Positions 1,056 through 54,854 of a stretch of DNA of 64,000 bases are shown here, piece after piece. How positions within the stretch are numbered: position 1 is the first letter of the stretch; each line of letters starts with the position of its first letter. Under the pieces are notes generated by a model that was not told the DNA's origin, did not search any database, and worked only from the letters and a program-made list of their open reading frames with translations. This stretch comes from Escherichia phage vB_EcoM_Lutter: sequence record NC_054924.1. One strand, given 5' to 3'. The position numbers and the translations under genes are program-made.

Positions 1056-1070
1056 TCTTTGACGATTTAA

Positions 1071-1099
1071 GGGACCTTCGGGTCCCTTTAGTTGTTTTT
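1071..1099 (+). terminator. Rho-independent terminator after gene 23
   Basis: GC hairpin gggaccttcgggtccc followed by a T-rich run. Confidence 0.7.
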
Positions 1100-1103
1100 A
1101 TGG

Positions 1104-1111
1104 TATAAATA
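1104..1111 (+). promoter_or_regulatory. T4-type late promoter (TATAAATA) upstream of gene 24
   Basis: Exact TATAAATA about 30 nt before the gene 24 ATG. Confidence 0.6.
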
Positions 1112-1138
1112 AATCATATAAACCAAAAGGAAAGCGCA

Positions 1139-5175: not shown

Positions 5176-5856
5176 TTATTTTAATGTTACGAAAGAAGAA
5201 TTGCGTGTTTCACGAATTAAAACTGATCCGTCACGGTTAATGTAATAAATTAAGCTAAATAAAGTTTGGTGTGCTGACGCATGCTCAAAACTTGTTGGGT
5301 GAGATTTCCAATCCGGAGTTTCAGCTATCCATTGATAAATCCACCAAGGAACAGTGCAGAATCCTGGATTTTTTCCAATCAGCTGAAGATTCGGACTAAA
5401 GTTTTCCGGAAGAGTAAATACAGACGGCTTTTCAGATTCAATAATCTCAGCTACAGCCTGCTCGAATTTTTCTTCAACAAAAGGAGTATCTTCAATCAAA
5501 ACATCGGTATTTTCAGGAATTTTATCCGTTTCTACTACTTCAATTTTAATGTCAGATTTAACCGGAGAATCAATCAGAAGTGCTGCTTCTGGATTGACTT
5601 CTTCATCGTCATATTTTAACCCCTCTGCAGCATCAGCAGCATCAATTAAGTCTTTAATAGATAACCCATCAGTCTCTGGCATAGGTTCACTAGCGAGCTT
5701 CTGGAGGGCTTCTTCAATATCAACAACGATATTATCAAAAGATTTATTCTTTTTGACTTTTATACCAAACTGTTCAGCATATTCAGCTAATTTAGCTTTA
5801 GCTTCTTTATTATCATCAAGAGCCTTCAGCTCTGCAATATAATCTTTATCTATCAT
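5176..5856 (-). CDS. inh: Inh, inhibitor of prohead protease (acidic head protein)
   Basis: 226 aa acidic ORF immediately upstream of hoc, matching T4 order. Confidence 0.7.
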   Translation of the reverse strand: MIDKDYIAELKALDDNKEAKAKLAEYAEQFGIKVKKNKSFDNIVVDIEEALQKLASEPMPETDGLSIKDLIDAADAAEGLKYDDEEVNPEAALLIDSPVKSDIKIEVVETDKIPENTDVLIEDTPFVEEKFEQAVAEIIESEKPSVFTLPENFSPNLQLIGKNPGFCTVPWWIYQWIAETPDWKSHPTSFEHASAHQTLFSLIYYINRDGSVLIRETRNSSFVTLK

Positions 5857-5869
5857 AATATTTCCTCAG

Positions 5870-5877
5870 TATAAATA
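5870..5877 (+). promoter_or_regulatory. Late promoter TATAAATA upstream of uvsW
   Basis: Exact TATAAATA about 30 nt before the uvsW ATG. Confidence 0.55.
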
Positions 5878-5906
5878 TAGATATATTTATTACATGGTAT
5901 TTAGAC

Positions 5907-7418
5907 ATGACTGACATTAAAGTACATTTTTATGATTTTAGTCACGTGAGAATTGATTGTGAAGAAAGCACATTTCATGAACTCCGTGATTTCTTTAGCT
6001 TTGAAGCTGATGGGTATCGTTTTAATCCGAAGTACAAATATGGTCACTGGGATGGACGAATCCGTCTTTTAGATTATAATCGTCTTCTTCCATTCGGTTT
6101 AGTCGGGCAAATTAAAAAGTTCTGTGATAACTTTGGCTATAAAGCCTGGATTGACCCACAGATTAACGAAAAAGAAGAATTATCAAGAAAAGATTTTGAT
6201 GAATGGCTTTCTAAATTAGAAATCTATTCAGGAAATAAAAGAATTGAACCACACTGGTATCAAAAAGATGCAGTGTTCGAAGGATTAGTTAATCGTCGTA
6301 GAATTCTTAATCTTCCAACATCCGCTGGTAAATCGTTAATTCAAGCTCTGCTTGCTCGGTATTATTTGGAAAATTATGAAGGTAAAATTCTTATCATTGT
6401 TCCAACAACTGCTCTAACAACTCAGATGGCTGATGACTTCGTTGACTATCGTTTATTCAGTCATGCAATGATAAAGAAAATTGGTGGCGGAGCATCAAAA
6501 GATGATAAATATAAAAATGATGCACCAGTCGTTGTTGGTACATGGCAAACTGTAGTAAAACAACCGAAAGAATGGTTCTCACAGTTTGGAATGATGATGA
6601 ATGATGAATGCCATCTTGCTACAGGAAAAAGTATTTCATCTATCATATCAGGTTTAAATAACTGTATGTTTAAATTTGGTTTGTCTGGTTCATTACGTGA
6701 CGGCAAAGCCAATATCATGCAGTATGTTGGAATGTTTGGTGAAATATTTAAGCCAGTAACGACCTCTAAATTAATGGAAGATGGACAAGTAACTGAGTTA
6801 AAAATTAATAGTATTTTTCTTCGCTATCCCGATGAGTTCACTACTAAATTAAAGGGAAAAACTTACCAAGAAGAAATAAAAATTATTACTGGGCTCAGTA
6901 AAAGAAATAAATGGATCGCTAAATTAGCTATTAAGCTTGCACAAAAAGATGAAAACGCTTTTGTCATGTTTAAACATGTATCGCATGGTAAAGCTATTTT
7001 CGATTTAATTAAAAATGAATACGATAAAGTTTATTACGTATCAGGGGAAGTTGATACCGAAACCCGCAATATAATGAAAACCTTAGCTGAAAATGGTAAA
7101 GGAATAATTATAGTAGCTAGTTATGGTGTATTTTCTACTGGTATTTCAGTTAAAAATCTACATCACGTTGTTTTAGCGCACGGTGTTAAATCAAAAATCA
7201 TTGTATTACAAACAATCGGTCGTGTATTACGTAAGCATGGTTCTAAGACAATAGCAACAGTCTGGGATCTTATAGATGACGCGGGCGTTAAGCCAAAATC
7301 TGCTAATACGAAAAAGAAATATGTTCATTTGAACTATCTTTTAAAACACGGCATTGATCGTATTCAGCGCTACGCAGATGAAAAATTTAATTACGTAATG
7401 AAAACAGTTAATTTATAA
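5907..7418 (+). CDS. uvsW: UvsW DNA/RNA helicase (SF2, branch migration)
   Basis: 503 aa; Walker A (LPTSAGKS) and DEAH-like (DECH) helicase motifs; N-terminus MTDIKVHFYDFSHVRI. Confidence 0.9.
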   Translation: MTDIKVHFYDFSHVRIDCEESTFHELRDFFSFEADGYRFNPKYKYGHWDGRIRLLDYNRLLPFGLVGQIKKFCDNFGYKAWIDPQINEKEELSRKDFDEWLSKLEIYSGNKRIEPHWYQKDAVFEGLVNRRRILNLPTSAGKSLIQALLARYYLENYEGKILIIVPTTALTTQMADDFVDYRLFSHAMIKKIGGGASKDDKYKNDAPVVVGTWQTVVKQPKEWFSQFGMMMNDECHLATGKSISSIISGLNNCMFKFGLSGSLRDGKANIMQYVGMFGEIFKPVTTSKLMEDGQVTELKINSIFLRYPDEFTTKLKGKTYQEEIKIITGLSKRNKWIAKLAIKLAQKDENAFVMFKHVSHGKAIFDLIKNEYDKVYYVSGEVDTETRNIMKTLAENGKGIIIVASYGVFSTGISVKNLHHVVLAHGVKSKIIVLQTIGRVLRKHGSKTIATVWDLIDDAGVKPKSANTKKKYVHLNYLLKHGIDRIQRYADEKFNYVMKTVNL

Positions 7419-26462: not shown

Positions 26463-26695
26463 AGTACGCCATACACCCTTTGTGCTTCAACTAATCCATC
26501 AAAATCCAGTTTAAGATGCGATATTTGATCGCCATCGCCTGGATTCACAATTACTAATACTGAACGAGGAGTTTCGGTAATAACACGAACCGATGTTTCA
26601 GGAAATCGTTCAGAAACCTTATTTACCAATTCCTGAGCAAATAGTTTAACTTTTTCTTGGAATTCTTTAACAGTAATTGGTTTTTCACTTAGCAT
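26459..26695 (-). CDS. Hypothetical protein
   Basis: 78 aa ORF. Confidence 0.45.
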   Translation of the reverse strand: MLSEKPITVKEFQEKVKLFAQELVNKVSERFPETSVRVITETPRSVLVIVNPGDGDQISHLKLDFDGLVEAQRVYGVL

Positions 26696-27216
26696 GTTGA
26701 TCCCAGCTCCTTACTTTCAACGTTTTTAACTAATTTGACAGAAACTAATTCAGCATCTTGAGTAATCATTACCGGGCCTTCTTCATACTCTTCAAGATAT
26801 TCTAGAGCTTTCTTTTTAGCTTCTTCCTTCGTATCAGTTTGAGCATAGATATAAAACATACAACCAGTAATACCTACTACTTTCCACTTAATTTCTTTAT
26901 CAGTTTTAATTTCAAATTTACTGACAGAATCATCTTTTTGAACTTCTTCGAAAAAAGAATATTCTAACATATAAGCAATTGAAAATAACGGGCTAACTTT
27001 ATAAGATTCGCCCATTACATCAACAGCTTTATACCAACAATCATCAATTTCGCGTTTAATGCTAATAACATTTTTCGCAGGATCTATTTTTACTTTAAAT
27101 GAATTTTCCCCAATAAACTGGGCAATTCGTTTATTAGCCCCGCAAGTTTCATTAAAAATATCTTTATATCCAGCTTTAAAGCGATAAACCTTATCTTCTT
27201 CAAACCATTCGCTCAT
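26689..27216 (-). CDS. Hypothetical protein
   Basis: 175 aa ORF preceded by an early promoter-like GTTTAC/TATTAT pair. Confidence 0.55.
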   Translation of the reverse strand: MSEWFEEDKVYRFKAGYKDIFNETCGANKRIAQFIGENSFKVKIDPAKNVISIKREIDDCWYKAVDVMGESYKVSPLFSIAYMLEYSFFEEVQKDDSVSKFEIKTDKEIKWKVVGITGCMFYIYAQTDTKEEAKKKALEYLEEYEEGPVMITQDAELVSVKLVKNVESKELGSTC

Positions 27217-27947: not shown

Positions 27948-29172
<1,225 letters not shown>

Positions 29173-30604: not shown

Positions 30605-32192
<1,588 letters not shown>

Positions 32193-32197
32193 AATAA

Positions 32198-32219
32198 AAT
32201 GGGCCTTGCGGCCCACTCC
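32198..32219 (-). terminator. Hairpin between nrdB and denA
   Basis: gggccttgcggccc hairpin followed on the minus strand by ATTTTATT. Confidence 0.45.
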
Positions 32220-33389
32220 TTAAAAATATTTTTTAAAACTCATCATAACTTTATCATCAACATCATTATCAATCTGTGCTACAAGGTAAGATGACAGTTC
32301 TACTTCTTGCGGCGCGGATTGAACATTATCAGAATTAAGGTATTCACGAATCCAAGGATATGGATGTTTAACCGGAGCATCGGTAATTGGGCATGGAAGA
32401 CCGCACTGTTTCATACGAGATACAGTTAAGTAATCAATAAAGCTCCACATGCTATTTGTATTTAATCCAGGAACATCACCATCTTTAAATAAATGAACTG
32501 CCCAATCTTTTTCTTGGCGGTTAACTTCCATGAAAATATCAACTGCTTCTTGTTCACACTCTTGAGCAATTTTAACCCATTCATCGCCATCAGTGCCAAG
32601 TTGAAGTTGACGAATAATATATTGAGTGCCTTTAAGGTGAAGCTGCTCATCACGTGCAATGAACTTCATAATCTTGGCATTACCTTCCATGATTTCCATA
32701 TTCTTGTGGAAGTTAAAGGTACATGCGAAAGATACATAAAAACGAATAGCTTCTAAGGCATTAATAACGTGCAAACAGAGGTAAAGAGATTTCATTAGCT
32801 CTCGTTTGGCGTATTCAACGACTTTACCAAGTTCATCTTTGCGCCAACCTTCAGACAAAATTCCTTCGTATTCTTCTTTAGCGTTTTCCCATTCACGGGT
32901 TTTAACCAAGACATCATCGTAATATCGCCCAATGGACTCAGCACGTTTCATAATAGCTTCATCTAATACAATCTCATCAAACACCTTCGATGGATCAGTA
33001 TAAAGATTTCGCATGATATGTGTATATGAACGGCTGTGAATAGTTTCACTAAAAGTCCACGTAGCAACCCATGTATCAAGGCTTGGGTCTGAAATTAATG
33101 ACATAAGTACAGCAGATGGCGCGCGACCCTGAATGCTATCCAAAAGTGATTGATACTTCAGGTTATTAGTAAAAATATTCTGTTGATACTGAGGAAGTTT
33201 ATTAAATTGTGCAGCATCCATCATCAAGTTTACTTCTTCAGGACGCCAGAAAAATGATAAAGATTTCTCAATAAGTTCTTCAAATACTCTATGCCGTTGA
33301 ATATCATATCGAGCTAAACCCAATCCAGAACCAAAAAACATCGGCTCAGTCAAAATATTAACAGGGGATGTATTAAAAACTGTACTCAT
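32220..33389 (-). CDS. nrdB: Ribonucleotide reductase small subunit (aerobic), uninterrupted
   Basis: 389 aa continuous ORF with no intron. Confidence 0.9.
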   Translation of the reverse strand: MSTVFNTSPVNILTEPMFFGSGLGLARYDIQRHRVFEELIEKSLSFFWRPEEVNLMMDAAQFNKLPQYQQNIFTNNLKYQSLLDSIQGRAPSAVLMSLISDPSLDTWVATWTFSETIHSRSYTHIMRNLYTDPSKVFDEIVLDEAIMKRAESIGRYYDDVLVKTREWENAKEEYEGILSEGWRKDELGKVVEYAKRELMKSLYLCLHVINALEAIRFYVSFACTFNFHKNMEIMEGNAKIMKFIARDEQLHLKGTQYIIRQLQLGTDGDEWVKIAQECEQEAVDIFMEVNRQEKDWAVHLFKDGDVPGLNTNSMWSFIDYLTVSRMKQCGLPCPITDAPVKHPYPWIREYLNSDNVQSAPQEVELSSYLVAQIDNDVDDKVMMSFKKYF

Positions 33390-34027
33390 TTAGAATCCTT
33401 AAATTTACATTTATCATAATGCCATCTTAGAGCATTGCCTTTATTAACCTTCTTGCCACAATGCGGACAAGGCGGATACTCTATACTTTGCTTAGTTCTC
33501 AAAGAAATCAAATCACGAGTTTCTTTAGTATGAGGAACATCTCTTGTTGGAGAGATTGTACCATACATCGGATTAAGCACGCCGACTTTAGCAGCAGCTA
33601 TATTCTTTTTAGCTTCTTCGGTTTTAGGTTTTCTCATGCGAGCTAAATGCTCTTTGGTAAATTTCCTTCCTTTAAGAGCTCTACTTATCTTTTCCCTGGT
33701 TTCTATAGAAACTTCACGTCCTATAGCAGCTTCAGATAAACGTCGTCTACCTAATTCGTATAGTTGAGAAGAAATTTTATATGAGCGATTTTTACCAGTC
33801 AAGCACATTAAACCAAAAGCTTTCTTTAATCCTGGGGTGTCATATATTTTGCATAAAAGCCAATGAGCTATAAAATGCTCTCTACCTGTTAATTCAACTA
33901 AATTTTCTTTATCATCAGAACCTCCCATACATCTAGGGATTATATGATGAGTCTCTTTATATTCAGATAAAGGTTCCCGAGCCTGAGCTCGGGAAATTAG
34001 GTCATTATAGATTTTTTGATAATTCAT
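33386..34027 (-). CDS. mobE: HNH homing endonuclease MobE
   Basis: 213 aa; HNH-type His and Cys pairs (HHIIPRCMGG...H) and a C-terminal zinc-ribbon-like CPHCGK; sits between nrdA and nrdB. Confidence 0.85.
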   Translation of the reverse strand: MNYQKIYNDLISRAQAREPLSEYKETHHIIPRCMGGSDDKENLVELTGREHFIAHWLLCKIYDTPGLKKAFGLMCLTGKNRSYKISSQLYELGRRRLSEAAIGREVSIETREKISRALKGRKFTKEHLARMRKPKTEEAKKNIAAAKVGVLNPMYGTISPTRDVPHTKETRDLISLRTKQSIEYPPCPHCGKKVNKGNALRWHYDKCKFKDSK

Positions 34028-36291
34028 TACAATTTACACGCTGCGCAATCATCGGCTTTTGGAGTTTCTATTTCATAATCATCAGTACCAGAACCATCGC
34101 GGGTATTATGATAATAGAAATTTTTTCCGCCAAAATACCAAAAATACAAAAGGTCATCAATCATTATTGACATTGGAACCTTTCCTTTTGGAAAAATCTG
34201 TGGGTCATAATATGTATTCGCCGAAGCTGATTGACAAACCCATTTCAGCATAATAGCTACCTGCGTAAGATAAGGTTTATTACCTTTCTTAGCTAATTTC
34301 CATGTATAATCATAGAGGTCTATGTTATGCTCAATATTGGGCACGACTTGATTAAAGGAGCCCTCTTTTGATTCTTTAACAGAGACTGGTCCACGTGGAG
34401 GCTCGATACCGTTTGTACTGTTAGAAACTTGGGAAGATGACTCACATGGCATAAGTGCTGATAATGTGCTATTACGGATGCCAAAGAGCTTAAGGTCTTC
34501 CCGCAGCGACGACCAGTCACAAACGTATTTTGGAGCTGCGATTTGGTCAATCTTTTTATTGTACCAGTCGATAGGTAATTCGCCTCGAGACCAACGAGTG
34601 TCTGAATAATATTCGCAAGGTCCTTTTTCTTTGGCGAGCTTAATGGATGCTTTAATGAGTCCATACTGTAATCTCTCAAATAGTTCATGTGTTAAATCGT
34701 TAGCATCTTCATAAGAAGCAAAGTTACTTGCCAGCCAAGCTGCATAGTTAGTAACACCTACACCAAGGTTTCGACGCTTTTTAGCTTTTTCTGCTTCAGG
34801 AACTGGATATCCTTGGTAATCCAAAAGATTATCAAGAGCACGAACTTGAACTTCTGCCAATTCATTAATTTTATCTTGGTCTTGCCAGTCAAAATTATCC
34901 AGTACGAATGCAGAGAGAGTACACAATCCAATTTCAGCATCAGGACTATTCACATCATTTGTTGGAATAGCAATTTCACAGCACAAGTTACTCTGACGAA
35001 TAGGTGCCTTTTCACGAATAAACGGAGTATAGTTATTCGTATTATCAATGAACTGCACATAAATCCTTGCTGTTCCTGAACGTTCAGTCATGAGCAATTC
35101 AAATAGTTCACGGGCTTTAATACGCTTTTTACGAATATTAGGGTCTTTTTCTGCTGCTTCGTATAATTCACGGAAACGGTCTTGGTCTTTAAAATAAGAA
35201 TAATAAAGCTCGCCACCCATTTCATGCGGACTGAACAAAGTAATGTAATCGTTCTTTCCGAATCGTTCCATCATCAAATCATTCAGCTGAACACCATAAT
35301 CCATATGACGAATGCGGTTTTCTTCTACGCCTTTGTTATTTTTCAAAACGAGAAGATTTTCAACTTCCAAATGCCAAATAGGATAATAAGCAGTAGCAGC
35401 GCCGCCACGAATTCCACCCTGTGAACATGATTTAACTGCAGTCTGAAAATGTTTCCAAAAAGGAATAACACCAGTATGGCGTACTTCACCCATGCCAATC
35501 TTAGAACCTTCAGCACGAATCATACCTACGTTAATTCCAATTCCAGCGCGTTTAGAAATATATTCAACAATTGAAGCAGAAGCTTTATTAATTGACTTCA
35601 ATGAATCACCAGCTTCAATAACAACGCATGAACTAAACTGTCGAGTCGGAGTACGGCAACCAGCCATAATAGGAGTTGGCAATGAAATCTGTCGAGTAGA
35701 TACTGCTTCATAAAAACGAATAACATGTTTTAATCTATCAACAGGTTCATCTTGATGCAATGCCATTCCAATAGTCATAAATGCAAACTGTGGAGTTTCA
35801 TAAATTTGACCAGTGGTTTTATCTTTAACTAGATATTTTTCTTTTAATTGCATCGCCCCGGAATAAGTAAATTCCATATCCCGCTCGTGCTTAATTTTTG
35901 ATTCTAAAAATGTAATTTCTTCTGCTGAATATTTTGACAATAATTCAGGGTCGTATTTACCTTCATTTACACAGTAAGAAATATGGTCAATAAATGAACG
36001 TGGTTCATACTGTCCATAAACATGCTTACGAAGAGCAAACATTAAACAACGTGCAGCTACATATTGATAATCAGGCTCTTCAACCGAAATAGAATTCGCA
36101 GCAGCCTTAATGACAATAGTCTGAATATCATTAGTTGTCATTCCATCACGGAGATAAGATTTAATATTTTCATATAATTCATAAGGATCTACTGATGTTC
36201 CTTCAGCTGCCCAAGATAAAACTTTAATAATTTTTTGTGGGTCAAAGCTCTGAGAAACACCACTACTTTTGATAACATTAATTAATTGCAT
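34027..36291 (-). CDS. nrdA: Ribonucleotide reductase large subunit (aerobic)
   Basis: 754 aa; class I RNR alpha. Confidence 0.95.
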   Translation of the reverse strand: MQLINVIKSSGVSQSFDPQKIIKVLSWAAEGTSVDPYELYENIKSYLRDGMTTNDIQTIVIKAAANSISVEEPDYQYVAARCLMFALRKHVYGQYEPRSFIDHISYCVNEGKYDPELLSKYSAEEITFLESKIKHERDMEFTYSGAMQLKEKYLVKDKTTGQIYETPQFAFMTIGMALHQDEPVDRLKHVIRFYEAVSTRQISLPTPIMAGCRTPTRQFSSCVVIEAGDSLKSINKASASIVEYISKRAGIGINVGMIRAEGSKIGMGEVRHTGVIPFWKHFQTAVKSCSQGGIRGGAATAYYPIWHLEVENLLVLKNNKGVEENRIRHMDYGVQLNDLMMERFGKNDYITLFSPHEMGGELYYSYFKDQDRFRELYEAAEKDPNIRKKRIKARELFELLMTERSGTARIYVQFIDNTNNYTPFIREKAPIRQSNLCCEIAIPTNDVNSPDAEIGLCTLSAFVLDNFDWQDQDKINELAEVQVRALDNLLDYQGYPVPEAEKAKKRRNLGVGVTNYAAWLASNFASYEDANDLTHELFERLQYGLIKASIKLAKEKGPCEYYSDTRWSRGELPIDWYNKKIDQIAAPKYVCDWSSLREDLKLFGIRNSTLSALMPCESSSQVSNSTNGIEPPRGPVSVKESKEGSFNQVVPNIEHNIDLYDYTWKLAKKGNKPYLTQVAIMLKWVCQSASANTYYDPQIFPKGKVPMSIMIDDLLYFWYFGGKNFYYHNTRDGSGTDDYEIETPKADDCAACKL

Positions 36292-36562: not shown

Positions 36563-36826
36563 TTATTCACTACCCGACATAGACGGCCCGCGCGGTGATA
36601 ATTCGGCATATTGTTTTTCCGTTAATACAGTAATATCGTAGTAACAGTCAGAAGAAGTTTTAACTGTGGAAATTTTATTGTCAAAATATTCACGAGTCAT
36701 TGTATGAGTATAGTATTTTTTACCATAAATGATAATAGGCTGTTCTGGTCCTGGAACTTCTAACTCGCTTGGGTTAGGAAGTGTAAAAAGAACAACGCCA
36801 GAAGTATCTTTAAATCGTAAAATCAT
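36563..36826 (-). CDS. Hypothetical protein (nrdA.2-like)
   Basis: 87 aa ORF. Confidence 0.5.
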
Positions 36827-37134
36827 ATTGCCATTTTCCCTTTAATTGCTGGATGCGATTCATAATTTTCAAGGATAAAATCTTTCGGTTTCATGTATTC
36901 AGTTAACCAGTAAAGCTGTGTTTCGGTGTCACAATTTCCAAACTCTATAGGCCAATCAATTTTAAGTTCACACAGTTCTTTAGGCTCACGACGTAAAATT
37001 TCTTTACATTGCTCAGTATGATTCATATAGATGTGAGTATTACCACCAGAAAATATCAAATCTCCTGGGATAAGATTACACATCTTAGCCACAATATGTG
37101 TCAAGGCAGCGTACGAGGCAATGTTGAACGGTAG
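36823..37134 (-). CDS. td: Thymidylate synthase, exon 2
   Basis: 3' splice site after ...ACATAATG; exon 2 begins CTACCGTTCAAC ([11 protein letters not shown]...). Confidence 0.9.
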
Positions 37135-38150
37135 CATTATGTTCAGATAAGGTCGTTAATCTTACCCCGGAATTATATCCAGCTACATGTCACCATGCAG
37201 AGCAGACTATATCTCCAACTTGTTAAAGCAAGTTGTCTATCGTTTCGAGTCACTTGACCCTACTCCCCAAAGGGATAGTCGTTAGGCATTTATGTAGAAC
37301 CAATTCCATTTATCAGATTTTACACGATAAGTAACTAATCCAGACGAAATTTTAAAATGTCTAGCTGCATCTGCTGCACATTCAAAAATAACCCCATCAC
37401 ATGAAATCTTTTTAATATTACTAGGCTTTTTACCTTTCATCTTTTCTGATATTTTAGATTTAGTTATGTCTGAATGCTTATGATTAAAGAATGAATTATT
37501 TTCACCTGAACGATTTCTGCATTTACTACAAGTATAAGCAGAAGTTTGTATGCGAACACCGCACTTACAAAACTTATGGATTTCTGGATTCCAACGCCCA
37601 TTTTTACTTCCGGGTTTACTGTAAAGAGCTTTCCGACCATCAGGTCCAAGTTTAAGCATCTTAGCTTTAACAGTTTCAGAACGTTTCTTAATAATTTCTT
37701 CTTTTAATGGATGCGTAGAACATGTATCACCAAACGTTGCATCAGCAATATTGTATCCATTAATTTTAGAATTAAGCTCTTTAATCCAAAAATTTTCTCG
37801 TTCAATAATCAAATCTTTCTCATATGGAATTTCTTCCAAAATAGAACATTCAAACACATTACCATGTTTGTTAAAAGACCTCTGAAGTTTTATAGAAGAA
37901 TGGCATCCTTTTTCTAAATCTTTAAAATGCCTCTTCCATCTCTTTTCAAAATCTTTAGCACTTCCTACATATACTTTATTGTTTAAAGTATTTTTAATCT
38001 GATAAATTCCGCTTTTCATAAATACCTCTTTGAATATAGAAGTATTTATTAAAGGGCAGTCCTACAATTTAGCACGGGATTGTCTACTAGAGAGTTTCCC
38101 CGTTTAGATAGATTACAAGTATAAGTCACCTTATACTCAGGCCTCAATTA
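37135..38150 (-). mobile_element. Group I self-splicing intron in td (1016 nt) carrying the I-TevI gene
   Basis: Intron 5' end TAATTGAGGCCTGAGTATAAGGTGACTTATACTTG and 3' end ...CATAATG match the td intron as I recall it; splicing the exons restores a 286-aa thymidylate synthase. Confidence 0.9.
37282..38019 (-). CDS. I-TevI: GIY-YIG homing endonuclease I-TevI (intron-encoded)
   Basis: 245 aa; N-terminal GIY-YIG (GIYQIKNTLNNKVYVGSA); lies wholly within the td intron. Confidence 0.95.
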   Translation of the reverse strand: MKSGIYQIKNTLNNKVYVGSAKDFEKRWKRHFKDLEKGCHSSIKLQRSFNKHGNVFECSILEEIPYEKDLIIERENFWIKELNSKINGYNIADATFGDTCSTHPLKEEIIKKRSETVKAKMLKLGPDGRKALYSKPGSKNGRWNPEIHKFCKCGVRIQTSAYTCSKCRNRSGENNSFFNHKHSDITKSKISEKMKGKKPSNIKKISCDGVIFECAADAARHFKISSGLVTYRVKSDKWNWFYINA

Positions 38151-38699
38151 ACCCAAGAAAACATCTACCGAACGTTGATACCACTGCAAATCCAAATAAC
38201 CATTACGCACATTAAACTGATAGAACATATGACAGGGCGGTAATGCCATTTGATTGATTTCAGCTGGATTCCATGCTGAAACGATTTGACGTCGATCAGT
38301 TGGTAATTTTTTAATACGATCAATAGTTTCAACTAATTGATCCACACCACCGAAATCACGCCATTGTTTACCGTATATAGGACCAAGTTCACCACTATGA
38401 TATCCTAGGTCTTTAGCTTGGTTTTCATAATTGTCATCCCAGATAGTTTTACCTTGAATAAGACTACCGTGAGTAAGAAGACGTAAATCATTAACATTGG
38501 TAGAACCGGAAATAAACCATAGAAGCTCAGCAATGCATGCATTCCAGGCGAGCTTCTTAGTTGTTACTGCAGGAAAACCTTTAGTTAAATCCCATCGTAA
38601 TTTAGTACCGAACAAAGCAATTGTTCCTGTGCCCGTTCGGTCATCGGTTTCATAGCCATTTTCAAAAATGTCTTTAATTAAATCTTGGTATTGTTTCAT
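38151..38699 (-). CDS. td: Thymidylate synthase, exon 1
   Basis: 183 codons ending ...VDVFLG; the in-frame stop TAA is provided by the first intron nucleotides. Confidence 0.9.
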
Positions 38700-38744: not shown

Positions 38745-39092
38745 TCAATACGGTTTAGCATCAAATTTTCTCTCAATTTCAGGTGTGAAATATAATTCTT
38801 TACCGCGTTTGGAAAAGCGACCAATAATATGATAATTATTCTCATCAAACGTGATATTACCAATATCCATAGCTTTCAACCAAATATCGATATTTCTATC
38901 CAGCTTTATGTCAAAATTCCAATACGGAGAACTATTACCGAAAATACTACAAGCGGATTCAGTGAAACAGCTACTATAAATCTTGTCTTTAGGAACTACT
39001 AATTGATAGACACCTTTAATAAACTGAGGACCTTGCCATTTTGGCTGTTTCTCGTCTTTTTCTAATAGAATAGGGTAATAATTAAAATTCAT
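38745..39092 (-). CDS. Hypothetical 115-aa protein inserted between frd and td
   Basis: ORF with an ATG start in the frd-td spacer; no motif recognised. Confidence 0.5.
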   Translation of the reverse strand: MNFNYYPILLEKDEKQPKWQGPQFIKGVYQLVVPKDKIYSSCFTESACSIFGNSSPYWNFDIKLDRNIDIWLKAMDIGNITFDENNYHIIGRFSKRGKELYFTPEIERKFDAKPY

Positions 39093-39111: not shown

Positions 39112-39932
<821 letters not shown>

Positions 39933-41105: not shown

Positions 41106-42014
41106 TTAAAGGTCATTCAAAAGGTCATCCAGGTCCGTGTCATCAGCACTAGATGAACTGCCAGAGCTTGAGCTCATAAAATCATCTTCAGTTTTTGTAT
41201 TGAAGTCATCAACATTGAATGCATCCAAATCATCAGCAACTTTATCAGCTTTCTTAGCAGCAGTTGCTGCGGCACCACCCATAGCAGCAGTTCCCATAAC
41301 TTGACTGAACTTAGTGCTCAGTTCTTCAAACGATTTGAATTTATCTTTAGAAGTCATTTCAGAAAGGTCAACCATTTGTTCGAACAGTTCTTTCTGGAAA
41401 GATTCATCATCAATGTTTGGAATCGCAGATTGATTCAGGAATTTAGATTCGTCGTAGTTACTAAAACCAGAAACTTGTTTAACTTTCAGTACAAAGTTAG
41501 CACCTTCCCACGGACAAGTTACATCAACCGGAGTTTCACCCATTTCAACATCAACTGCAATCATTGCATTGATTTTATCCCAGATTTTCTTACCGAAGCG
41601 GTATTTAAATACTTTACCTTCATTTTCTGGAGCAGCTGGGTCTTTTACAACAAGAATGTTAGCCCAGTAAGAAGTTTTGCGTTTAACAAGACTGTACTCT
41701 TTATTGTCAGTGTTGTACAAATCATTTTTACTGATGTACTGACATACTGGACAAGAATCGTAATCACCGTGGGTAGATGAACACGTTTCAATATACCATT
41801 TGCCATTTTTCTTGAAACCGTGATTTACAAGAATTGCAAATGGTGCTTGTTCATCATTTTTAGACGGAAGAAAACGAATTACTGCTTGACCGTTACCCGC
41901 ATTGTCGAGTTTCAGTTTCCACTCGCCTTTATCTTCAGAAGAAAAACCACCTTTATTTCCAGCCAGTTTAGCCATTTGTGCAGCGAGTTCAGCAGTAGAT
42001 TTACGTTTAAACAT
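41106..42014 (-). CDS. 32: Single-stranded DNA-binding protein gp32
   Basis: 302 aa; acidic Ser/Asp-rich C-terminal tail; N-terminus [17 protein letters not shown]. Confidence 0.95.
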
Positions 42015-42113
42015 TTTTATTTCCTTTTTAATTTAATTAACAGTTGGTGCTATGACGATGTATGACCTCATAGCTGGTCAGTGAGATAATTATAATCTAT
42101 TTATAATAAGCAA

Positions 42114-42767
42114 TTAATACTTGCAAGATTTCACAGTTTCAATAAAAACATTTTTAGCTTTCTGTGAATCAATATTTAAAATTTTTCTATAAGCCTTTAA
42201 CTTTATAGAATAATTATTCCAGACTAAATTATCAGTCTGTTCATCATGTTTATCAATTATATTTAAAAACGAATCAAGCAAGATAAACGTTTCAAACGAA
42301 ATTATATTCGACTGAAGCAGTTTAAAAATATAACTTGATTGAACCTTTGGATTATATTCAAAGATTTCTTTAAAAGCAGAAACTTCAACTTTTTTACTAA
42401 AATAATAAATGTTGCGAATATCTTCTTCAAACTTAAATTTAATTTGCTTTAAGCGTCCGATATATTCACGATAAAACACAAGTGCATCAGCGTCAGAGAT
42501 GTCACCAATCCAAGCATCTTGGTTAGCAACAAGATTGCTTATAAAGATTAAAGCAAGTTCCTTTAATTTATATTTTTCTGATAACTTCTGGAAAAAATAC
42601 TTATCCCTTCGCTTTTGATAAGCGGCATCAGACACCCGCATGCACCAATTATACTTAATTACATCATACTTTCCATTCATATGTTGTTTTATCATTAAGT
42701 ATAATTTATAAACTGATTTACCATCAATATATCTTTCACCACCAGCAGGCATGCGGAGTTTAATCAT
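42114..42767 (-). CDS. 59: Helicase loader gp59
   Basis: 217 aa; position between 33 and 32. Confidence 0.85.
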   Translation of the reverse strand: MIKLRMPAGGERYIDGKSVYKLYLMIKQHMNGKYDVIKYNWCMRVSDAAYQKRRDKYFFQKLSEKYKLKELALIFISNLVANQDAWIGDISDADALVFYREYIGRLKQIKFKFEEDIRNIYYFSKKVEVSAFKEIFEYNPKVQSSYIFKLLQSNIISFETFILLDSFLNIIDKHDEQTDNLVWNNYSIKLKAYRKILNIDSQKAKNVFIETVKSCKY

Positions 42768-50109: not shown

Positions 50110-53100
50110 ATGGCTACTTTAAAACAAATACAATTTAAAAGAAGCAAAACCGCAGGTGCACGTCCTGCTGCTTCAGTATTAGCCGAAGGCGAATTGGCTA
50201 TAAACTTAAAAGATAGAACAATTTTTACTAAAGATGATTCAGGAAATATCATTGACTTAAGCATTTCCGCTGGCGGTAATATCAGTGGAAATATCACTCA
50301 AACTGGTGATTATACACAGACTGGAAAATTTAATTTAATTGGTCCACAAATTGTAGCAAGTGGTGGATATATTGAGTTTAATTATCGTACTACTGGAAGT
50401 GGGGCTTGGTCCGGTCAACACACTGCAAAAGCTCCAATTTTTGTAGATTTAAGCTCAGCTACTTCCACATCTGAATATAATCCTATAATTAAACAGCGCT
50501 TTAAAGATGGAACTTTTTCATTAGGTACTTTAGTTTCTGAAGGTTCGTTAAAGATTCATTATATTGATGAAACTGGTCAATCTAAATATTGGACATTTGC
50601 GCGCTCAGGTAATTTTCAAGTTGATTCTGGTAATTTATTAGTATCTGGTGGGTATTTAGTCGCTCAGAGTAATATTGAAACAAGAACAGGTTCTTTGATT
50701 GGTCCATCTGTTGTAACTAAAAATATTTCATTTGATACGAAAGCGTTTGGACAATATGATTCGCAGTCATTAGTTCAATATGTTTATCCTGGAACTGGTG
50801 AAACAAACGGAATTAATTACCTTCGTAAATTCCGTGCAAAATCCGGTGGTACGATTTATCATGAATTAGCTTCTGCACAAACCGGAAAAAGTGATGAACT
50901 GTCTTGGTGGACCGGTAATACAGCCGTTAATAAACAAATGGGCCTTCGCAATGATGGGTCTTTAGTATTGCGACGCTCACTCGCAATTGGTACAATTACA
51001 ACAGATGAAAACATTAATAATTACGGCTCCACTGGAGCAATGGGTGAATGCTATATAGTCATTGGAGATGCCGCAACTGGTATATCATATAAAAGATCTG
51101 GTGTATATGATTTAGTTGCTAATGGTCTTTCTATCGCGTCTATTACTCCTGACAGTTTCCGTAGTACTCGTAAAGCATTATTTGGACGCTCAGAAGATCA
51201 AGGTACAACATGGATTATGCCTGGAACGAATGCTGCATTTTTATCAGTTCAAACACAGGCTGATGAAAACGGTGCTGGAGACGGTCAGACACATATTGGC
51301 TATAATTCAGGCGGAAAAATGAACCACTATTTCCGCGGCAAAGGCAAAACTAATATTAATACTCAAGAAGGCATGGAAGTTAACCCGGGTATTCTTAAAA
51401 TAGTAACCGGTGCAAATAATGTAATGTTTTATGCTGATGGCGGTATTACATCCACTAAGCAGCTTTCAATATATAATGGTGTATATTTAGCAGCTAATAA
51501 TTCTACTGCTGGGCTAACATTCGCTCCAACTACTACAGTTGATGGCACTAAGCAAATTTTGTGGGAAGGTGGTAAGCGCGCTGGACAGAATAAAAGCTAT
51601 GTAACTGTTAAAGCGTGGGGTAATTCATTTAACGCATCTGGCGATCGTAATCGTGAAACAGTTTTTGAAGTAGCTGACGGACAAGGTTATTATTTTTATG
51701 CGCAGCGTGTAGCTCCTGCATCAGGTTCAACAACTGGAGTAATTCAATTTAGAATTGCTGGAGCATTATTAACCGGTGGGGGTATTACATCATCAGGTTC
51801 TATTGTTACTGAGTCAAGTTTAGTTGCAAATAATGGATTGTCTGTAAATGGACAAGCTAAATTTGGTGGAACAGCAGATGCATTAAGAATTTGGAATGCT
51901 GAATACGGTGCTATTTTCCGCCGTTCGGAAACTAACTTTTATATTATTCCAACTTTACAAAATGCTGGAGAATCGGGCGGTATAAGTAATTTACGCCCAT
52001 TTACCATCAATCTCGCAAATGGTAGTGTTATGATGGGCAATCATACACAAGCCGGAAAAAATTTGCTTACTATTGATAACGTATCAAAATTCGTTCAAAC
52101 CGATGTTAGACTTCGAGTTAATATGGATTCTGACGCTATTGTGGTAAATGCTTCATCTCAAGCTGCATCTAACTTTATTCAAGGACGTAAGGCTGATGTT
52201 ACAAAATGGTATTTAGGTATTGGCGATGGCGGAAACGTCGTTCGTATGCATAATTACACCTACTCTCACGGTATTGCATTAAACTCTGATACTGTCGATA
52301 TTACTAAGCCTCTTAAAATTAATGATATTCGAATTGGTACAGATGGTAACATCACAGGTGGTACTGGTAATTTTGCTAACTTAAATACAACGTTAAATCG
52401 TAAAACCAGCGTGGGCGGTTGGGCTGGTAGTTCTGTTGACGGATGGTATAAATTTGCTACGGTAACAATTCCTCAGGGTACTGGTACAGTGACTTTTAAG
52501 ATTTCCGGCGGCGCTGGTTTTAATTTTAAAAGCTATAGCCAAGCTTCTGTTGCAGAAATAGTTCTTCGCACGGGTAATAATCCTAAAGGCATAAACGCTG
52601 TACTGTGGAATAGGTCAGACCTGAGTTTTAATCAGATAGCTACTATGAATACATCTGGCGATACTTATGATGTATACGTGTTCTGTGCCGGTTATACAAA
52701 TGCATTAGTGGTTGAATATTCCTGTAGTGAAAACTCTTCGGTAACCGTAGTCGGTCTTAACGGAGGCATTCAGCCAGTTGTTGATGCATTGCCTGAGGGA
52801 CATGTTGTAGGTAAAACAGTTCGTCTGTTAAATAATATTGGCGGAACTTTCGCAGCTGGAGAATCTAACATTGTTACTCGCGGTGAATACGTTACTGATA
52901 ATCAAAAAGGCATGCGTATTAAATCTAACGGTAATAATATCGGTTCTAACGCAGCTTTAATTAGAAATGATGGCGGAAGTTTTTATATTTTAGCTACAGA
53001 TAAAAATACGGAAGAAAAACCCGATGCAGCTAATGGTGATTGGAATGGCTTAAGACCTTTCTCTATTAATATGACTGATGGCCGCGTTAGTATGAACCAC

Positions 53101-53985
53101 GGGTTGAATATTACTGGCGGTGGATTAAACGTTACTGGTGGTAATACTAGCTTAGGTAATATCTCGTCTCGTTTGGTTTCATACGCCCGCGCGCCATCTG
53201 GATGGGGAGATACCTCAGATGCCATGAAATCTAAAATCACCTTTATGGCAGACCACGGGGATTTATCTAATTCAGACAGTTATTATCCTATTGTCGGTGC
53301 ATACAGCAACTATGGTTCAGCGGGTTATCGTCAAACATTTGAATTTGGATGGGTCGGCTCTGGTACCACCGCTGGATGGCGAGAAGGTATTATTCGTATT
53401 CGCGGTGATAATGCTAATGGCCAGCAAGCAAGATGGCGATTTACAATGGATGGTATTTTAGATTGCCCGGGTAAAGTACAGATGCCACAAACAAGCGCAT
53501 TTGGCGTCAATACAACAAATGGATGGGGTGGTAACTCCATTGCAATTGGTGATAGCAATACTGGTTTTAGACAAGTAGGCGATGGGCTTTTAGAAGCGTG
53601 GGCGAACAATGTTAAAGTTGTTAGATTCACCTCAGGTGAAGTTTATTCCGAGAAAAACGTTAACGCTCCTAATGTTTACATTCGTTCTGATGTTCGCTTG
53701 AAATCTAATTTCAAACCTATTGAAAACGCGCTCGAAAGGGTTGAGCAACTTGATGGTTTAATCTATGATAAAGCTGAATATATAGGCGGTGAGCCTGTTC
53801 AAACTGAAGCGGGTATTATAGCTCAAACGTTGCAAGACGTTTTACCAGAAGCTGTCCATGAAACAGAAGACAGTAAGGGTAATAAAATACTCACTGTTTC
53901 TTCTCAAGCCCAGATTGCTCTTCTGGTTGAAGCTGTGAAAACACTTTCTGCTCGTGTAAAAGAACTTGAATCTAAACTTATGTAA
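50110..53985 (+). CDS. 37: Long tail fibre distal subunit gp37 (long, T2-like type with a C-terminal chaperone-like domain)
   Basis: 1291 aa; N-terminus MATLKQIQFKRSKTAGARPAASVLAEGELAINL; segments homologous to gp34; C-terminal ~99 aa resemble an intramolecular chaperone domain. Confidence 0.85.
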   Translation: MATLKQIQFKRSKTAGARPAASVLAEGELAINLKDRTIFTKDDSGNIIDLSISAGGNISGNITQTGDYTQTGKFNLIGPQIVASGGYIEFNYRTTGSGAWSGQHTAKAPIFVDLSSATSTSEYNPIIKQRFKDGTFSLGTLVSEGSLKIHYIDETGQSKYWTFARSGNFQVDSGNLLVSGGYLVAQSNIETRTGSLIGPSVVTKNISFDTKAFGQYDSQSLVQYVYPGTGETNGINYLRKFRAKSGGTIYHELASAQTGKSDELSWWTGNTAVNKQMGLRNDGSLVLRRSLAIGTITTDENINNYGSTGAMGECYIVIGDAATGISYKRSGVYDLVANGLSIASITPDSFRSTRKALFGRSEDQGTTWIMPGTNAAFLSVQTQADENGAGDGQTHIGYNSGGKMNHYFRGKGKTNINTQEGMEVNPGILKIVTGANNVMFYADGGITSTKQLSIYNGVYLAANNSTAGLTFAPTTTVDGTKQILWEGGKRAGQNKSYVTVKAWGNSFNASGDRNRETVFEVADGQGYYFYAQRVAPASGSTTGVIQFRIAGALLTGGGITSSGSIVTESSLVANNGLSVNGQAKFGGTADALRIWNAEYGAIFRRSETNFYIIPTLQNAGESGGISNLRPFTINLANGSVMMGNHTQAGKNLLTIDNVSKFVQTDVRLRVNMDSDAIVVNASSQAASNFIQGRKADVTKWYLGIGDGGNVVRMHNYTYSHGIALNSDTVDITKPLKINDIRIGTDGNITGGTGNFANLNTTLNRKTSVGGWAGSSVDGWYKFATVTIPQGTGTVTFKISGGAGFNFKSYSQASVAEIVLRTGNNPKGINAVLWNRSDLSFNQIATMNTSGDTYDVYVFCAGYTNALVVEYSCSENSSVTVVGLNGGIQPVVDALPEGHVVGKTVRLLNNIGGTFAAGESNIVTRGEYVTDNQKGMRIKSNGNNIGSNAALIRNDGGSFYILATDKNTEEKPDAANGDWNGLRPFSINMTDGRVSMNHGLNITGGGLNVTGGNTSLGNISSRLVSYARAPSGWGDTSDAMKSKITFMADHGDLSNSDSYYPIVGAYSNYGSAGYRQTFEFGWVGSGTTAGWREGIIRIRGDNANGQQARWRFTMDGILDCPGKVQMPQTSAFGVNTTNGWGGNSIAIGDSNTGFRQVGDGLLEAWANNVKVVRFTSGEVYSEKNVNAPNVYIRSDVRLKSNFKPIENALERVEQLDGLIYDKAEYIGGEPVQTEAGIIAQTLQDVLPEAVHETEDSKGNKILTVSSQAQIALLVEAVKTLSARVKELESKLM

Positions 53986-54015
53986 AAGAGGGCTTCGGCC
54001 CTCTAAGGATTTTTA

Positions 54016-54822
54016 ATGGCAATTGTAGGTGTTCCTGGCTGGATTGGCGAATCTGCCGTGAATGAAACTGGACAACGTTGGATGGATGCTGCGATGAGAG
54101 CAGTTCGTGTTTCAGTTCCCGGTTGGATGAGTTCAATGGCAGGAAAGTCAGTTGAAAAAGCTTATTCAATTGGCTCAAATCATTCATATAATAAAGATAC
54201 TTTAATTAATTGGCTTAAATCAATTGGAACAGCTCCTGCTGTTGTAACAATAACAGGAGATATTGTTTCTAGTTCTTCGACTATTCCATGTTTAGATTTT
54301 CCTAGTTCATTAACTAATGAATATGTGACATTGATTATTAACTCTGGCGTTACTGTTTATGGCCGAGGAGGTAATGGATCTGGATCTAGTGGAGGTTCTG
54401 GAGATGCTTTAGTTCGAGCAACTGCTGGCGGTACGGCTATTAATAATGGTATTGGTACACGCTTACGTATTACGAATAATGGCGCAATCGCTGGCGGTGG
54501 CGGTGGTGGAGGTGGTTGGTCCATAGACTATAACTTCACATTAGGTAATGTTGCTGGTGGTGGAGGCGGACGTCCTTTCGGTACTGGTGGTCGAGGTGGT
54601 CGAGGTAATGGTGGTAATGCATCGTTAACCGCCGCAGGTGGTAAAGTAACTGTTGATGGTAATAACATGAGTGGTGCGGGTGGTAATGTTGGCTCAGCTG
54701 GTGGCGCTGCTGTTCGTACATCAAACTTTCAAACTAGTGGCGCTGGCGCTGCGGGTAAAGCTGTTACCGGAAATGCCCCAACATGGACTAAGGTTGGTAC
54801 AATATACGGTTCAAGAGTATAA
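54016..54822 (+). CDS. 38: Receptor-recognising adhesin gp38 (T2-type, glycine-rich motifs)
   Basis: 268 aa; conserved N-terminal half then several poly-Gly motifs separating short variable segments. Confidence 0.8.
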   Translation: MAIVGVPGWIGESAVNETGQRWMDAAMRAVRVSVPGWMSSMAGKSVEKAYSIGSNHSYNKDTLINWLKSIGTAPAVVTITGDIVSSSSTIPCLDFPSSLTNEYVTLIINSGVTVYGRGGNGSGSSGGSGDALVRATAGGTAINNGIGTRLRITNNGAIAGGGGGGGGWSIDYNFTLGNVAGGGGGRPFGTGGRGGRGNGGNASLTAAGGKVTVDGNNMSGAGGNVGSAGGAAVRTSNFQTSGAGAAGKAVTGNAPTWTKVGTIYGSRV

Positions 54823-54854
54823 ATTTTGAATAAATATCCTTAAAAGGAGGGTCT

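Follow-up and report, generated by a model that had tools for sequence, protein, structure and literature searches.

We have analysed the nrdA-nrdB region of Escherichia phage vB_EcoM_Lutter (NC_054924.1) within a stretch of 64,000 nucleotides of its genome, called here the window. All coordinates are those of the window, and the genes and sites in and around nrdB, including denA, nrdA and td, lie on the minus strand. The large subunit of ribonucleotide reductase is encoded by nrdA (34027..36291; 754 aa), which was taken from the list of open reading frames (ORFs) and is annotated at the colinear position in phages VEc20, T4 and T6. The small subunit of this class Ia enzyme is encoded by nrdB (32220..33389). 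The gap between the two genes is filled entirely by an ORF of 213 codons (33386..34027), whose ATG overlaps the stop codon of nrdA (TAATGA) and whose own stop codon overlaps the ATG of nrdB. By its domains, its PHROG family and its orthology to the T6 gene this ORF is clearly mobE, a free-standing HNH homing endonuclease gene of T6 type, placed between nrdA and nrdB as in the published arrangement (PMC2988022).

In blastn comparison the window is colinear with T4 (NC_000866) from about 105.5 kb (position ~105,460) up to position 168,903, where the T4 sequence ends by convention, with 90-98% identity. The best database matches are all Tequatrovirus phages, but they differ by segment. They are vB_Eco_BGP over 0-25 kb (98.5% identical), VEc20 over 30-36 kb (99.0%) and either G8 or SH-2 over 39-64 kb (93-95%), and in this segment-wise nucleotide comparison no single database record matched the window end to end. 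Judged by these matches, the window is a mosaic segment of a Tequatrovirus (T-even) genome.

The original prediction described nrdB as one continuous, intronless ORF of 389 aa, and this is borne out. Its product matches the Pfam family PF00268 (Ribonuc_red_sm) with 128 bits and carries the FFWRPEE block, with the radical-transfer tryptophan, at residues 46-52. It is identical to spliced T4 NrdB at 362 of 385 aligned residues and to T6 NrdB at 364 of 385. Aligned with T4 nrdB, the window sequence matches on both sides of a clean gap of 598 nt. The T4 intron is inserted in a Cys codon (after T4 nt 664), and the homologous site in the window, GCA T/GT ACC (the slash marking the insertion point, after nrdB nt 667; 32722..32723), contains 0 nt. 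In phages HY03 and SHFML-26 the same site is occupied by 1090-1096 nt with a full-length I-TevIII. A tblastn search with T4 I-TevIII found no I-TevIII-like sequence in the window, and a search of nrdB with the Rfam group I intron model (RF00028) at E values up to 1, which does detect the td intron, gave no signal. The negative result for nrdB is taken at this E-value threshold; at the Rfam gathering threshold the whole window gave no match, the td intron included.

We compared the sequence around this empty site with the cleavage positions published for I-TevIII (PMC1865063), the homologue of which lies at 32737..32739. The sequence GAAGCTATTCGTTTTTATGTATC (positions -31 to -9) is identical in the window, in T4 and in 20 of the 21 alleles compared, that of SHFML-26 having one substitution at -27. 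Relative to the T4 intronless substrate that has been tested, the window differs at -6, -3, +17 and +23, all of these being synonymous third-base changes. The cleavage core is the same as in that substrate, and it is therefore plausible that the empty site in the window would be sensitive to I-TevIII. The 15 nt immediately upstream of the core (AATGCCTTAGAAGCT) agree exactly with intron-bearing T4 and at 14 of 15 positions with SHFML-26 (GCA for GCT); they are absent from most intronless alleles, yet occur exactly in the intronless allele of Sf24. Position -3 is A in the window and in the intronless alleles, but G in each of the three alleles that bear the intron.

The nrdB gene is itself a mosaic. 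Nucleotides 1-300 are T6-like (96-99% identical), 301-500 are T4-like (97-100%), and 501-600 are common to VEc20 only, being 44-58% identical to T4, T2 and T6. The remainder of the gene is generic, with nt 901-1000 100% identical to T4.

The mobE gene is intact, and the original prediction that an HNH endonuclease gene lies between nrdA and nrdB is confirmed. The product contains both an HNH domain (PF01844; residues 21-44; 24.4 bits against a cut-off of 21.4) and a NUMOD3 motif (34.5 bits against 20.4), and it matches the homing endonuclease family phrog_655 (1e-66). It is identical to T6 MobE at 209 of 213 residues (98%), and at the nucleotide level the gene is 100% identical to that of KAW1E185. 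The relationship to T4 is more distant. In the T4 annotation the gene is divided between mobE (141 aa) and nrdB.1, as a result of two 1-nt insertions relative to phage ECO4; 81 of the 83 C-terminal residues of the window protein are identical to the nrdB.1 part, and in the aligned N-terminal part 85 of 138 residues are identical to T4 MobE. A central segment of about 70 residues is unlike T4 MobE, and on this account the target specificity of the two proteins could differ.

Regulatory signals described for T4 mobE are also found in the window. The T4 gene lacks a separate promoter and is transcribed together with nrdA (Wilson and Edgell, 2009; PMC2790892), and a hairpin within it ends some 30-50% of the transcripts (PMC2790892). 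A consensus scan of the window finds a terminator-like hairpin with a 9-bp stem, a 4-nt loop and a short T tract near the 5′ end of mobE (33974..33995), identical in sequence to that of T4. The middle promoter of nrdB has been placed within the 3′ part of mobE (PMC2790892). The corresponding part of the window contains GTGCTTAA, which resembles a MotA box, followed after 12 nt by TACAAT, in a sequence identical to that of T4. We infer that this element (33555..33580) is the position of a candidate MotA-type middle promoter for nrdB.

A promoter for nrdB inside mobE would select against deletion of the latter, as has been argued (PMC2790892). This raises the alternative that mobE is a decaying, inactive passenger, kept for the regulatory signals of nrdB and no longer homing. 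The splitting of the T4 reference gene by two insertions shows that mobE tolerates damage, as such a reading would have it. Yet in the window the ORF is unbroken from the stop codon of nrdA to the start of nrdB, both of its domains exceed the Pfam cut-offs, and it is nearly identical to T6 MobE and, in nucleotides, fully identical to the KAW1E185 gene. It is moreover linked to a sequence in nrdB of the kind that an active enzyme would select for (see below). We therefore consider an inactive passenger unlikely.

The T4 MobE protein has been studied genetically, and nuclease activity in vitro was never obtained; a strand-specific nick in T2 nrdB (nt 122-126) depends on it, and the repair of this nick brings about the inheritance of mobE and also, in trans, that of the defunct intron in nrdB (PMC2790892). 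Polymorphisms at nt 114-131 of nrdB, the region containing the nicks mapped in T2, have been proposed to protect genomes that carry mobE (PMC2790892). The homologous region of the window lies at 33259..33276, and we compared it in 21 phages. At codons 41-44 the window reads GAG AAA TCT TTA, a sequence shared with T6, VEc20, KAW1E185, Ge15, SHFML-26 and Aplg8, all of which carry mobE. Phages HMD-9 and HY03 have the synonymous AAG TCT TTG, while T4 and ECO4, with a T4-type mobE, have CGG CAG ATC. Seven of the nine phages that lack mobE have instead GAA AAG CAR TTR, preceded by GAT TTR ACC; in T2 this takes the form GAA AAG CAG TTG, which is sensitive to MobE. The association is not perfect. Yersinia phage PST lacks mobE but has the T6-type variant, SCS4 likewise lacks mobE and has AAT CAT at the nick site, and LHE83 (a Dhakavirus) carries mobE with a different variant. 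The FFWRPEE block just downstream is invariant among the phages compared.

This association agrees with the protection model (PMC2790892). The nick site of the window nrdB is presumably the resistant variant linked to mobE, rather than a target of MobE, and this would explain self-immunity. By analogy with T4, we infer that the MobE of this phage is active and that its own nrdB is immune. MobE would be expressed from nrdA transcripts, the start codon of mobE overlapping the nrdA stop and the weak internal terminator being conserved. It would then nick the nrdB of co-infecting phages that lack mobE at around nt 122-126, and repair would copy mobE and its flanks into the recipient genome. The nrdB of the phage itself would escape through the variant GAG AAA TCT TTA. 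There is no intron within range of co-conversion, and so MobE would mobilise here only itself and its flanking sequence, while the td intron would spread by means of I-TevI.

The hypervariable patch at nt 501-600 of nrdB, in the window and in VEc20, has the MobE nick site on one side of it and the site of I-TevIII cleavage on the other. This patch could be the outcome of repeated gene conversion driven by endonucleases, or it could be a barrier limiting co-conversion of an incoming intron. One might go further and suppose that T6-type mobE and the variant at codons 41-44 are co-inherited as a cassette of endonuclease plus immunity allele, with the patch as a product of gene conversion or a barrier to it. 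We regard this extended proposal as quite improbable, although if it were true the nrdB allele of the window would be a natural test of the length of conversion tracts initiated by MobE.

Is an intronless nrdB next to mobE unusual? Among the 35 records listed with a full-length T6-type mobE in a search with mobE and the nrdB insertion site as query, 30 span 1525-1537 bp and are thus intronless; these include T6, LZ7, VEc20, KAW1E185, Ge15, JEP6 and the slur phages. The remaining five (HY03 and SHFML-26, with two records each, and vB_ECOLIGBLB0003) span about 2630 bp, with an intron of about 1090 nt containing a full-length I-TevIII. These last phages resemble the window in their T6-type mobE (96% nucleotide identity for HY03) and in having the same or a closely similar nick-site haplotype, but differ in having 1090-1096 nt of intron where the window has none. 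T6-type mobE is thus usually accompanied by an nrdB without an intron.

In the wider phage collection, where the counts include duplicate records of the same phage, 510 records match nrdB over at least 80% of its length, 118 match the nrdB intron at the same coverage, and 48 have a full-length T6-type mobE. Records with segD, segE and segG number 55, 159 and 142, against about 500 close relatives. Eight phages were taken at regular intervals from the nrdB ranking; none of them has mobE or the intron, and each has the 51-bp spacer between nrdA and nrdB that is found in T2. The empty state is therefore the majority at the three seg sites and at the nrdB intron site, and mobE is, if anything, a minority feature. 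We rejected the opposite view, that mobE represents the majority state. It might be drawn from the 493 records that cover at least 80% of a 6-kb query, but mobE makes up only 11% of that query.

We turn now to the three junctions at which T4 carries seg genes. In T4, segD, segE and segG lie exactly between genes 23 and 24, inh and uvsW, and genes 32 and 59, respectively. The original prediction was that no ORF is found at these places in the window, and the ORF list shows none in any of the three spacers. The 23/24 spacer is 83 bp (1056..1138, between the end of gene 23 at 1055 and the start of gene 24 at 1139), compared with 790 bp in T4. The inh/uvsW spacer is 50 bp (5857..5906, between genes at 5176-5856 and 5907-7418), and that between genes 32 and 59 is 99 bp (42015..42113, between genes at 41106-42014 and 42114-42767). 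Searching the window by tblastn with the T4 Seg proteins gave no remnant of segD, segE or segG; the sole match to SegD is a distant GIY-YIG similarity to I-TevI. The junctions are equal in length to those of T2 (AP018813) and nearly identical in sequence, with 180/183, 149/150 and 198/199 positions identical at 23/24, inh/uvsW and 32/59.

Could the ancestor of the window have resembled T4, with the nrdB intron and the three seg genes in place, and could these have been lost precisely while mobE was kept? The T4-like stretches of its nrdB would fit such a history, as would the presence of AATGCCTTAGAAGCT upstream of the I-TevIII core, although this is found also in intronless Sf24. Furthermore VEc20, the closest relative at the nrd locus, carries segG at 32/59 as T4 does. 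Against this, the window holds no remnant of a seg gene or of I-TevIII, its three junctions are T2 alleles almost to the base, position -3 is that of the intronless alleles, and the endonuclease-free state is the majority in the collection. The same sequence would result from exact loss, through recombination with an allele that is empty, and from a history in which the sites were never invaded, and it is on the basis of the population frequencies that we give secondary loss from a T4-like ancestor a low weight and think it improbable. That the absences are artefacts of sequencing or assembly, the intron or seg genes having been collapsed, has a negligible probability. The junctions are clean, in frame or intergenic as appropriate, and match those of independently sequenced phages, T2 at the seg sites and VEc20, T6 and KAW1E185 at nrdB.

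The td gene of the window (36823..38699), in which the original prediction placed I-TevI, carries a group I intron at the splice sites of T4 td. To define its boundaries we compared the intronless T2 td with the window by blastn and read the splice sites, which gave exon 1 at 38151-38699, an intron of 1016 nt at 37135-38150 and exon 2 at 36823-37134. The exons splice in frame to give a product of 286 aa. RF00028 matches at 37183-37413 with E = 6e-7, its 37.5 bits falling short of the gathering score, which is 50. The intron encodes I-TevI (37282..38019; 245 aa), a GIY-YIG homing endonuclease with Pfam GIY-YIG, I-TevI_ZnF and I-TevI_DNA-bd domains, which is identical to T4 I-TevI at 243 of 245 residues.

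Taken over six sites, the homing-endonuclease complement can be compared directly between phages. T4 has all six elements, i.e., segD, segE, the nrdB intron, mobE, the td intron with I-TevI, and segG. It resembles the window in the position of mobE, the overlap at its start, the hairpin within it, the sequence of its C-terminal 83 residues and the FFWRPEE block, and is unlike it in the 598-nt nrdB intron with its defunct I-TevIII, the central segment of mobE, the nick-site haplotype and the three seg genes. T2 has none of the six; its nrdB is intronless like that of the window, but mobE is missing and the td intron is absent from AP018813. T6 (MH550421, AY262134) has mobE and the td intron with I-TevI, and like the window has the order nrdA-mobE-nrdB, a mobE of 642 nt, an intronless nrdB, the same nick-site haplotype and no segG. 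Unlike the window it carries segD and segE, and its nrdB (1167 nt) is without the variant patch, the identity between the two genes being 53% over nt 501-600. The window itself has mobE and the td intron with I-TevI, and has neither the nrdB intron nor any of the three seg genes.

The complement of the window thus differs from that of T4 as had been proposed, and the comparison with T4 showed no shared arrangement at these sites. What does not hold is the description of mobE as retained and of the seg sites as empty slots, which takes T4 as the norm. The nrd locus has the T6 arrangement, the junctions are T2 alleles, and T4 is a documented outlier in its load of homing endonucleases, seg genes being scarce in other phages as a matter of textbook knowledge ('T4 is an oddity'; PMC2988022). 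That T-even phages differ in which of the T4 introns they carry was the first hint of intron mobility, and for the nrdB intron such variation was known as early as 1987 (Pedersen-Lane and Belfort, as cited in PMC2988022). We are thus confident in the view that the window combines a T6-type nrd locus with T2-type, endonuclease-free junctions, as one combination in a well-known patchwork of homing endonucleases across the T-even phages, T4 being exceptional in its over-colonisation. Both states are already known, that of T6 at the nrd locus and that of T2 at the three seg sites. The finding matters little beyond correct annotation; for mobE beside an nrdB without an intron, T6 is the published precedent.

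The original prediction also envisaged that intronless target sites would be open to cleavage in mixed infection. Gene 32 is the target gene of SegG, and in crosses of T2 with T4 it is classically T2 that is excluded. Compared with T2, the window shows 100% identity over the initial 100 nt of gene 32 and 98% over the initial 150 nt of uvsW, whereas this part of uvsW is only 75% identical to T4. Since these 5′ ends are T2-like, it is plausible from this whole-region similarity that the window would be sensitive to both SegE and SegG, uvsW being the listed target of SegE in a 2010 review (PMC2988022). The same review gives the mobility of SegD as not determined and its target as unknown (PMC2988022), and there is consequently no basis for expecting marker exclusion at the 23/24 junction.

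From these homologies we predict that in a mixed infection with T4 the phage would be a recipient for gene conversion driven by SegE and SegG, and that phages with a full-length I-TevIII would likewise pass their nrdB intron to it. By the same reasoning we expect immunity to I-TevI and, probably, to MobE.

Four ORFs are specific to the window in comparison with T4 (26689-27216, 28852-29172, 38745-39092 and 39690-39932). These were considered as unrecognised homing endonucleases, and rejected because they have no Pfam domain and fall into PHROG families of unknown function. Directly downstream of nrdB lies denA (31782..32216), encoding endonuclease II. This too is a GIY-YIG nuclease (Pfam GIY-YIG, 27.1 bits), but not a homing endonuclease, and its product is 99.3% identical to T4 DenA by tblastn.

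Three types of mobE are found at the site between nrdA and nrdB. The first ~165 nt, corresponding to the HNH module, are common to all three, and the sequences diverge beyond this point. The window (33386-34027) carries the T6-type gene, and its ORF is intact at 213 aa in both the window and T6. The T4/ECO4-type gene, taken from phage ECO4 (record L019, 301-999), encodes 232 aa, in which the central ~70 residues are different and the C-terminus is the same. The RB3/Aplg8-type gene, from phage Aplg8 (record L020, 301-1047), encodes 248 aa with an unrelated C-terminal half. Alignment of T4 (record L002, 39717-40417) with the ECO4 gene reveals that T4 mobE (141 aa) and nrdB.1 (83 aa) are a single broken gene. 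The ECO4 ORF is intact at 232 aa, and in comparison with it the T4 gene is disrupted by two insertions of one base each.

The variant at nrdB codons 41-44, the homologue of the MobE nick region mapped in T2, is linked to mobE, and Yersinia phage PST is an exception to this association. It lacks mobE, yet its codons 41-44 read GAG AAA TCT TTA, i.e., the T6-type, mobE-linked variant. This is compatible with either loss of mobE or recombination in the 5′ end of nrdB. Alleles can also be compared at the intron site. The last full codon of exon 1 (position -3; window 32725) is GCG in all three intron-bearing alleles, those of T4, HY03 and SHFML-26, whereas 17 of the 18 alleles without an intron read GCA, GCT or GCC, the sole exception being RB68 with GCG. 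The GCG at position -3 may be a signature of co-conversion or of P1 pairing.

The empty intron site lies 70-165 nt downstream of a hypervariable patch in NrdB (window 32790-32889, minus strand), which spans nt 501-600 of the gene and residues about 171-195 of the protein. By sequence comparison the window is 100% identical to phage VEc20 in this patch, while its identity falls to 58% with T4, 44% with T2 and 53% with T6; the T4, T2 and T6 versions differ from one another in both sequence and length. A database search returned only 18 records that are at least 95% identical to the window nrdB overall.

VEc20 is the closest relative of the window at the nrd locus, with 99% identity. Nevertheless, VEc20 has segG between genes 32 and 59 (record L001, 32100-32732), where the window has an empty spacer of the T2 type. 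Endonuclease content therefore varies even among near-identical neighborhoods. A local divergence is seen in uvsW, where the first 150 nt (window 5907-6056) are 98% identical to T2 and 75% identical to T4, the remainder of the gene being 95-100% identical to T2 and T4 alike. This divergent 5′ patch adjoins the insertion point of segE. The uvsW gene is uninterrupted in the window (5907-7418), in contrast to T6, where it is split around T6ORF179 (record L005, 7704-8396). T6ORF179 is itself a MobE-like HNH protein; in a 183-residue tblastn alignment it is 39% identical to the window MobE.

The thymidylate synthase of the window departs strongly from its T4 and T2 counterparts in the C-terminal ~45 residues, encoded at the 3′ end of td exon 2 (window about 36823-36960, minus strand); elsewhere the proteins are about 95% identical. 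The blastn alignment with T2 td ends at nt 719 of 861. At the gathering threshold Rfam reported no family in the entire 64 kb of the window. The group I intron of td (37135-38150) scored 37.5 bits, below the gathering score of 50, presumably owing to interruption of the model by the I-TevI ORF.

Four minus-strand ORFs of the window are present in T6 and absent from T4, at 26689-27216, 28852-29172, 38745-39092 and 39690-39932, annotated in T6 as RB32ORF214c, 217c, 229c and 231c. T2 apparently also has at least 229c and 231c. All four were rejected as homing endonucleases, since no Pfam domain was found in them and they fall into PHROG families of unknown function. The distal tail-fiber region (genes 37 and 38; window 50255-54830) is 71% identical to T4 over part of its length and otherwise unaligned, a sequence divergence that points to a different receptor-binding module.
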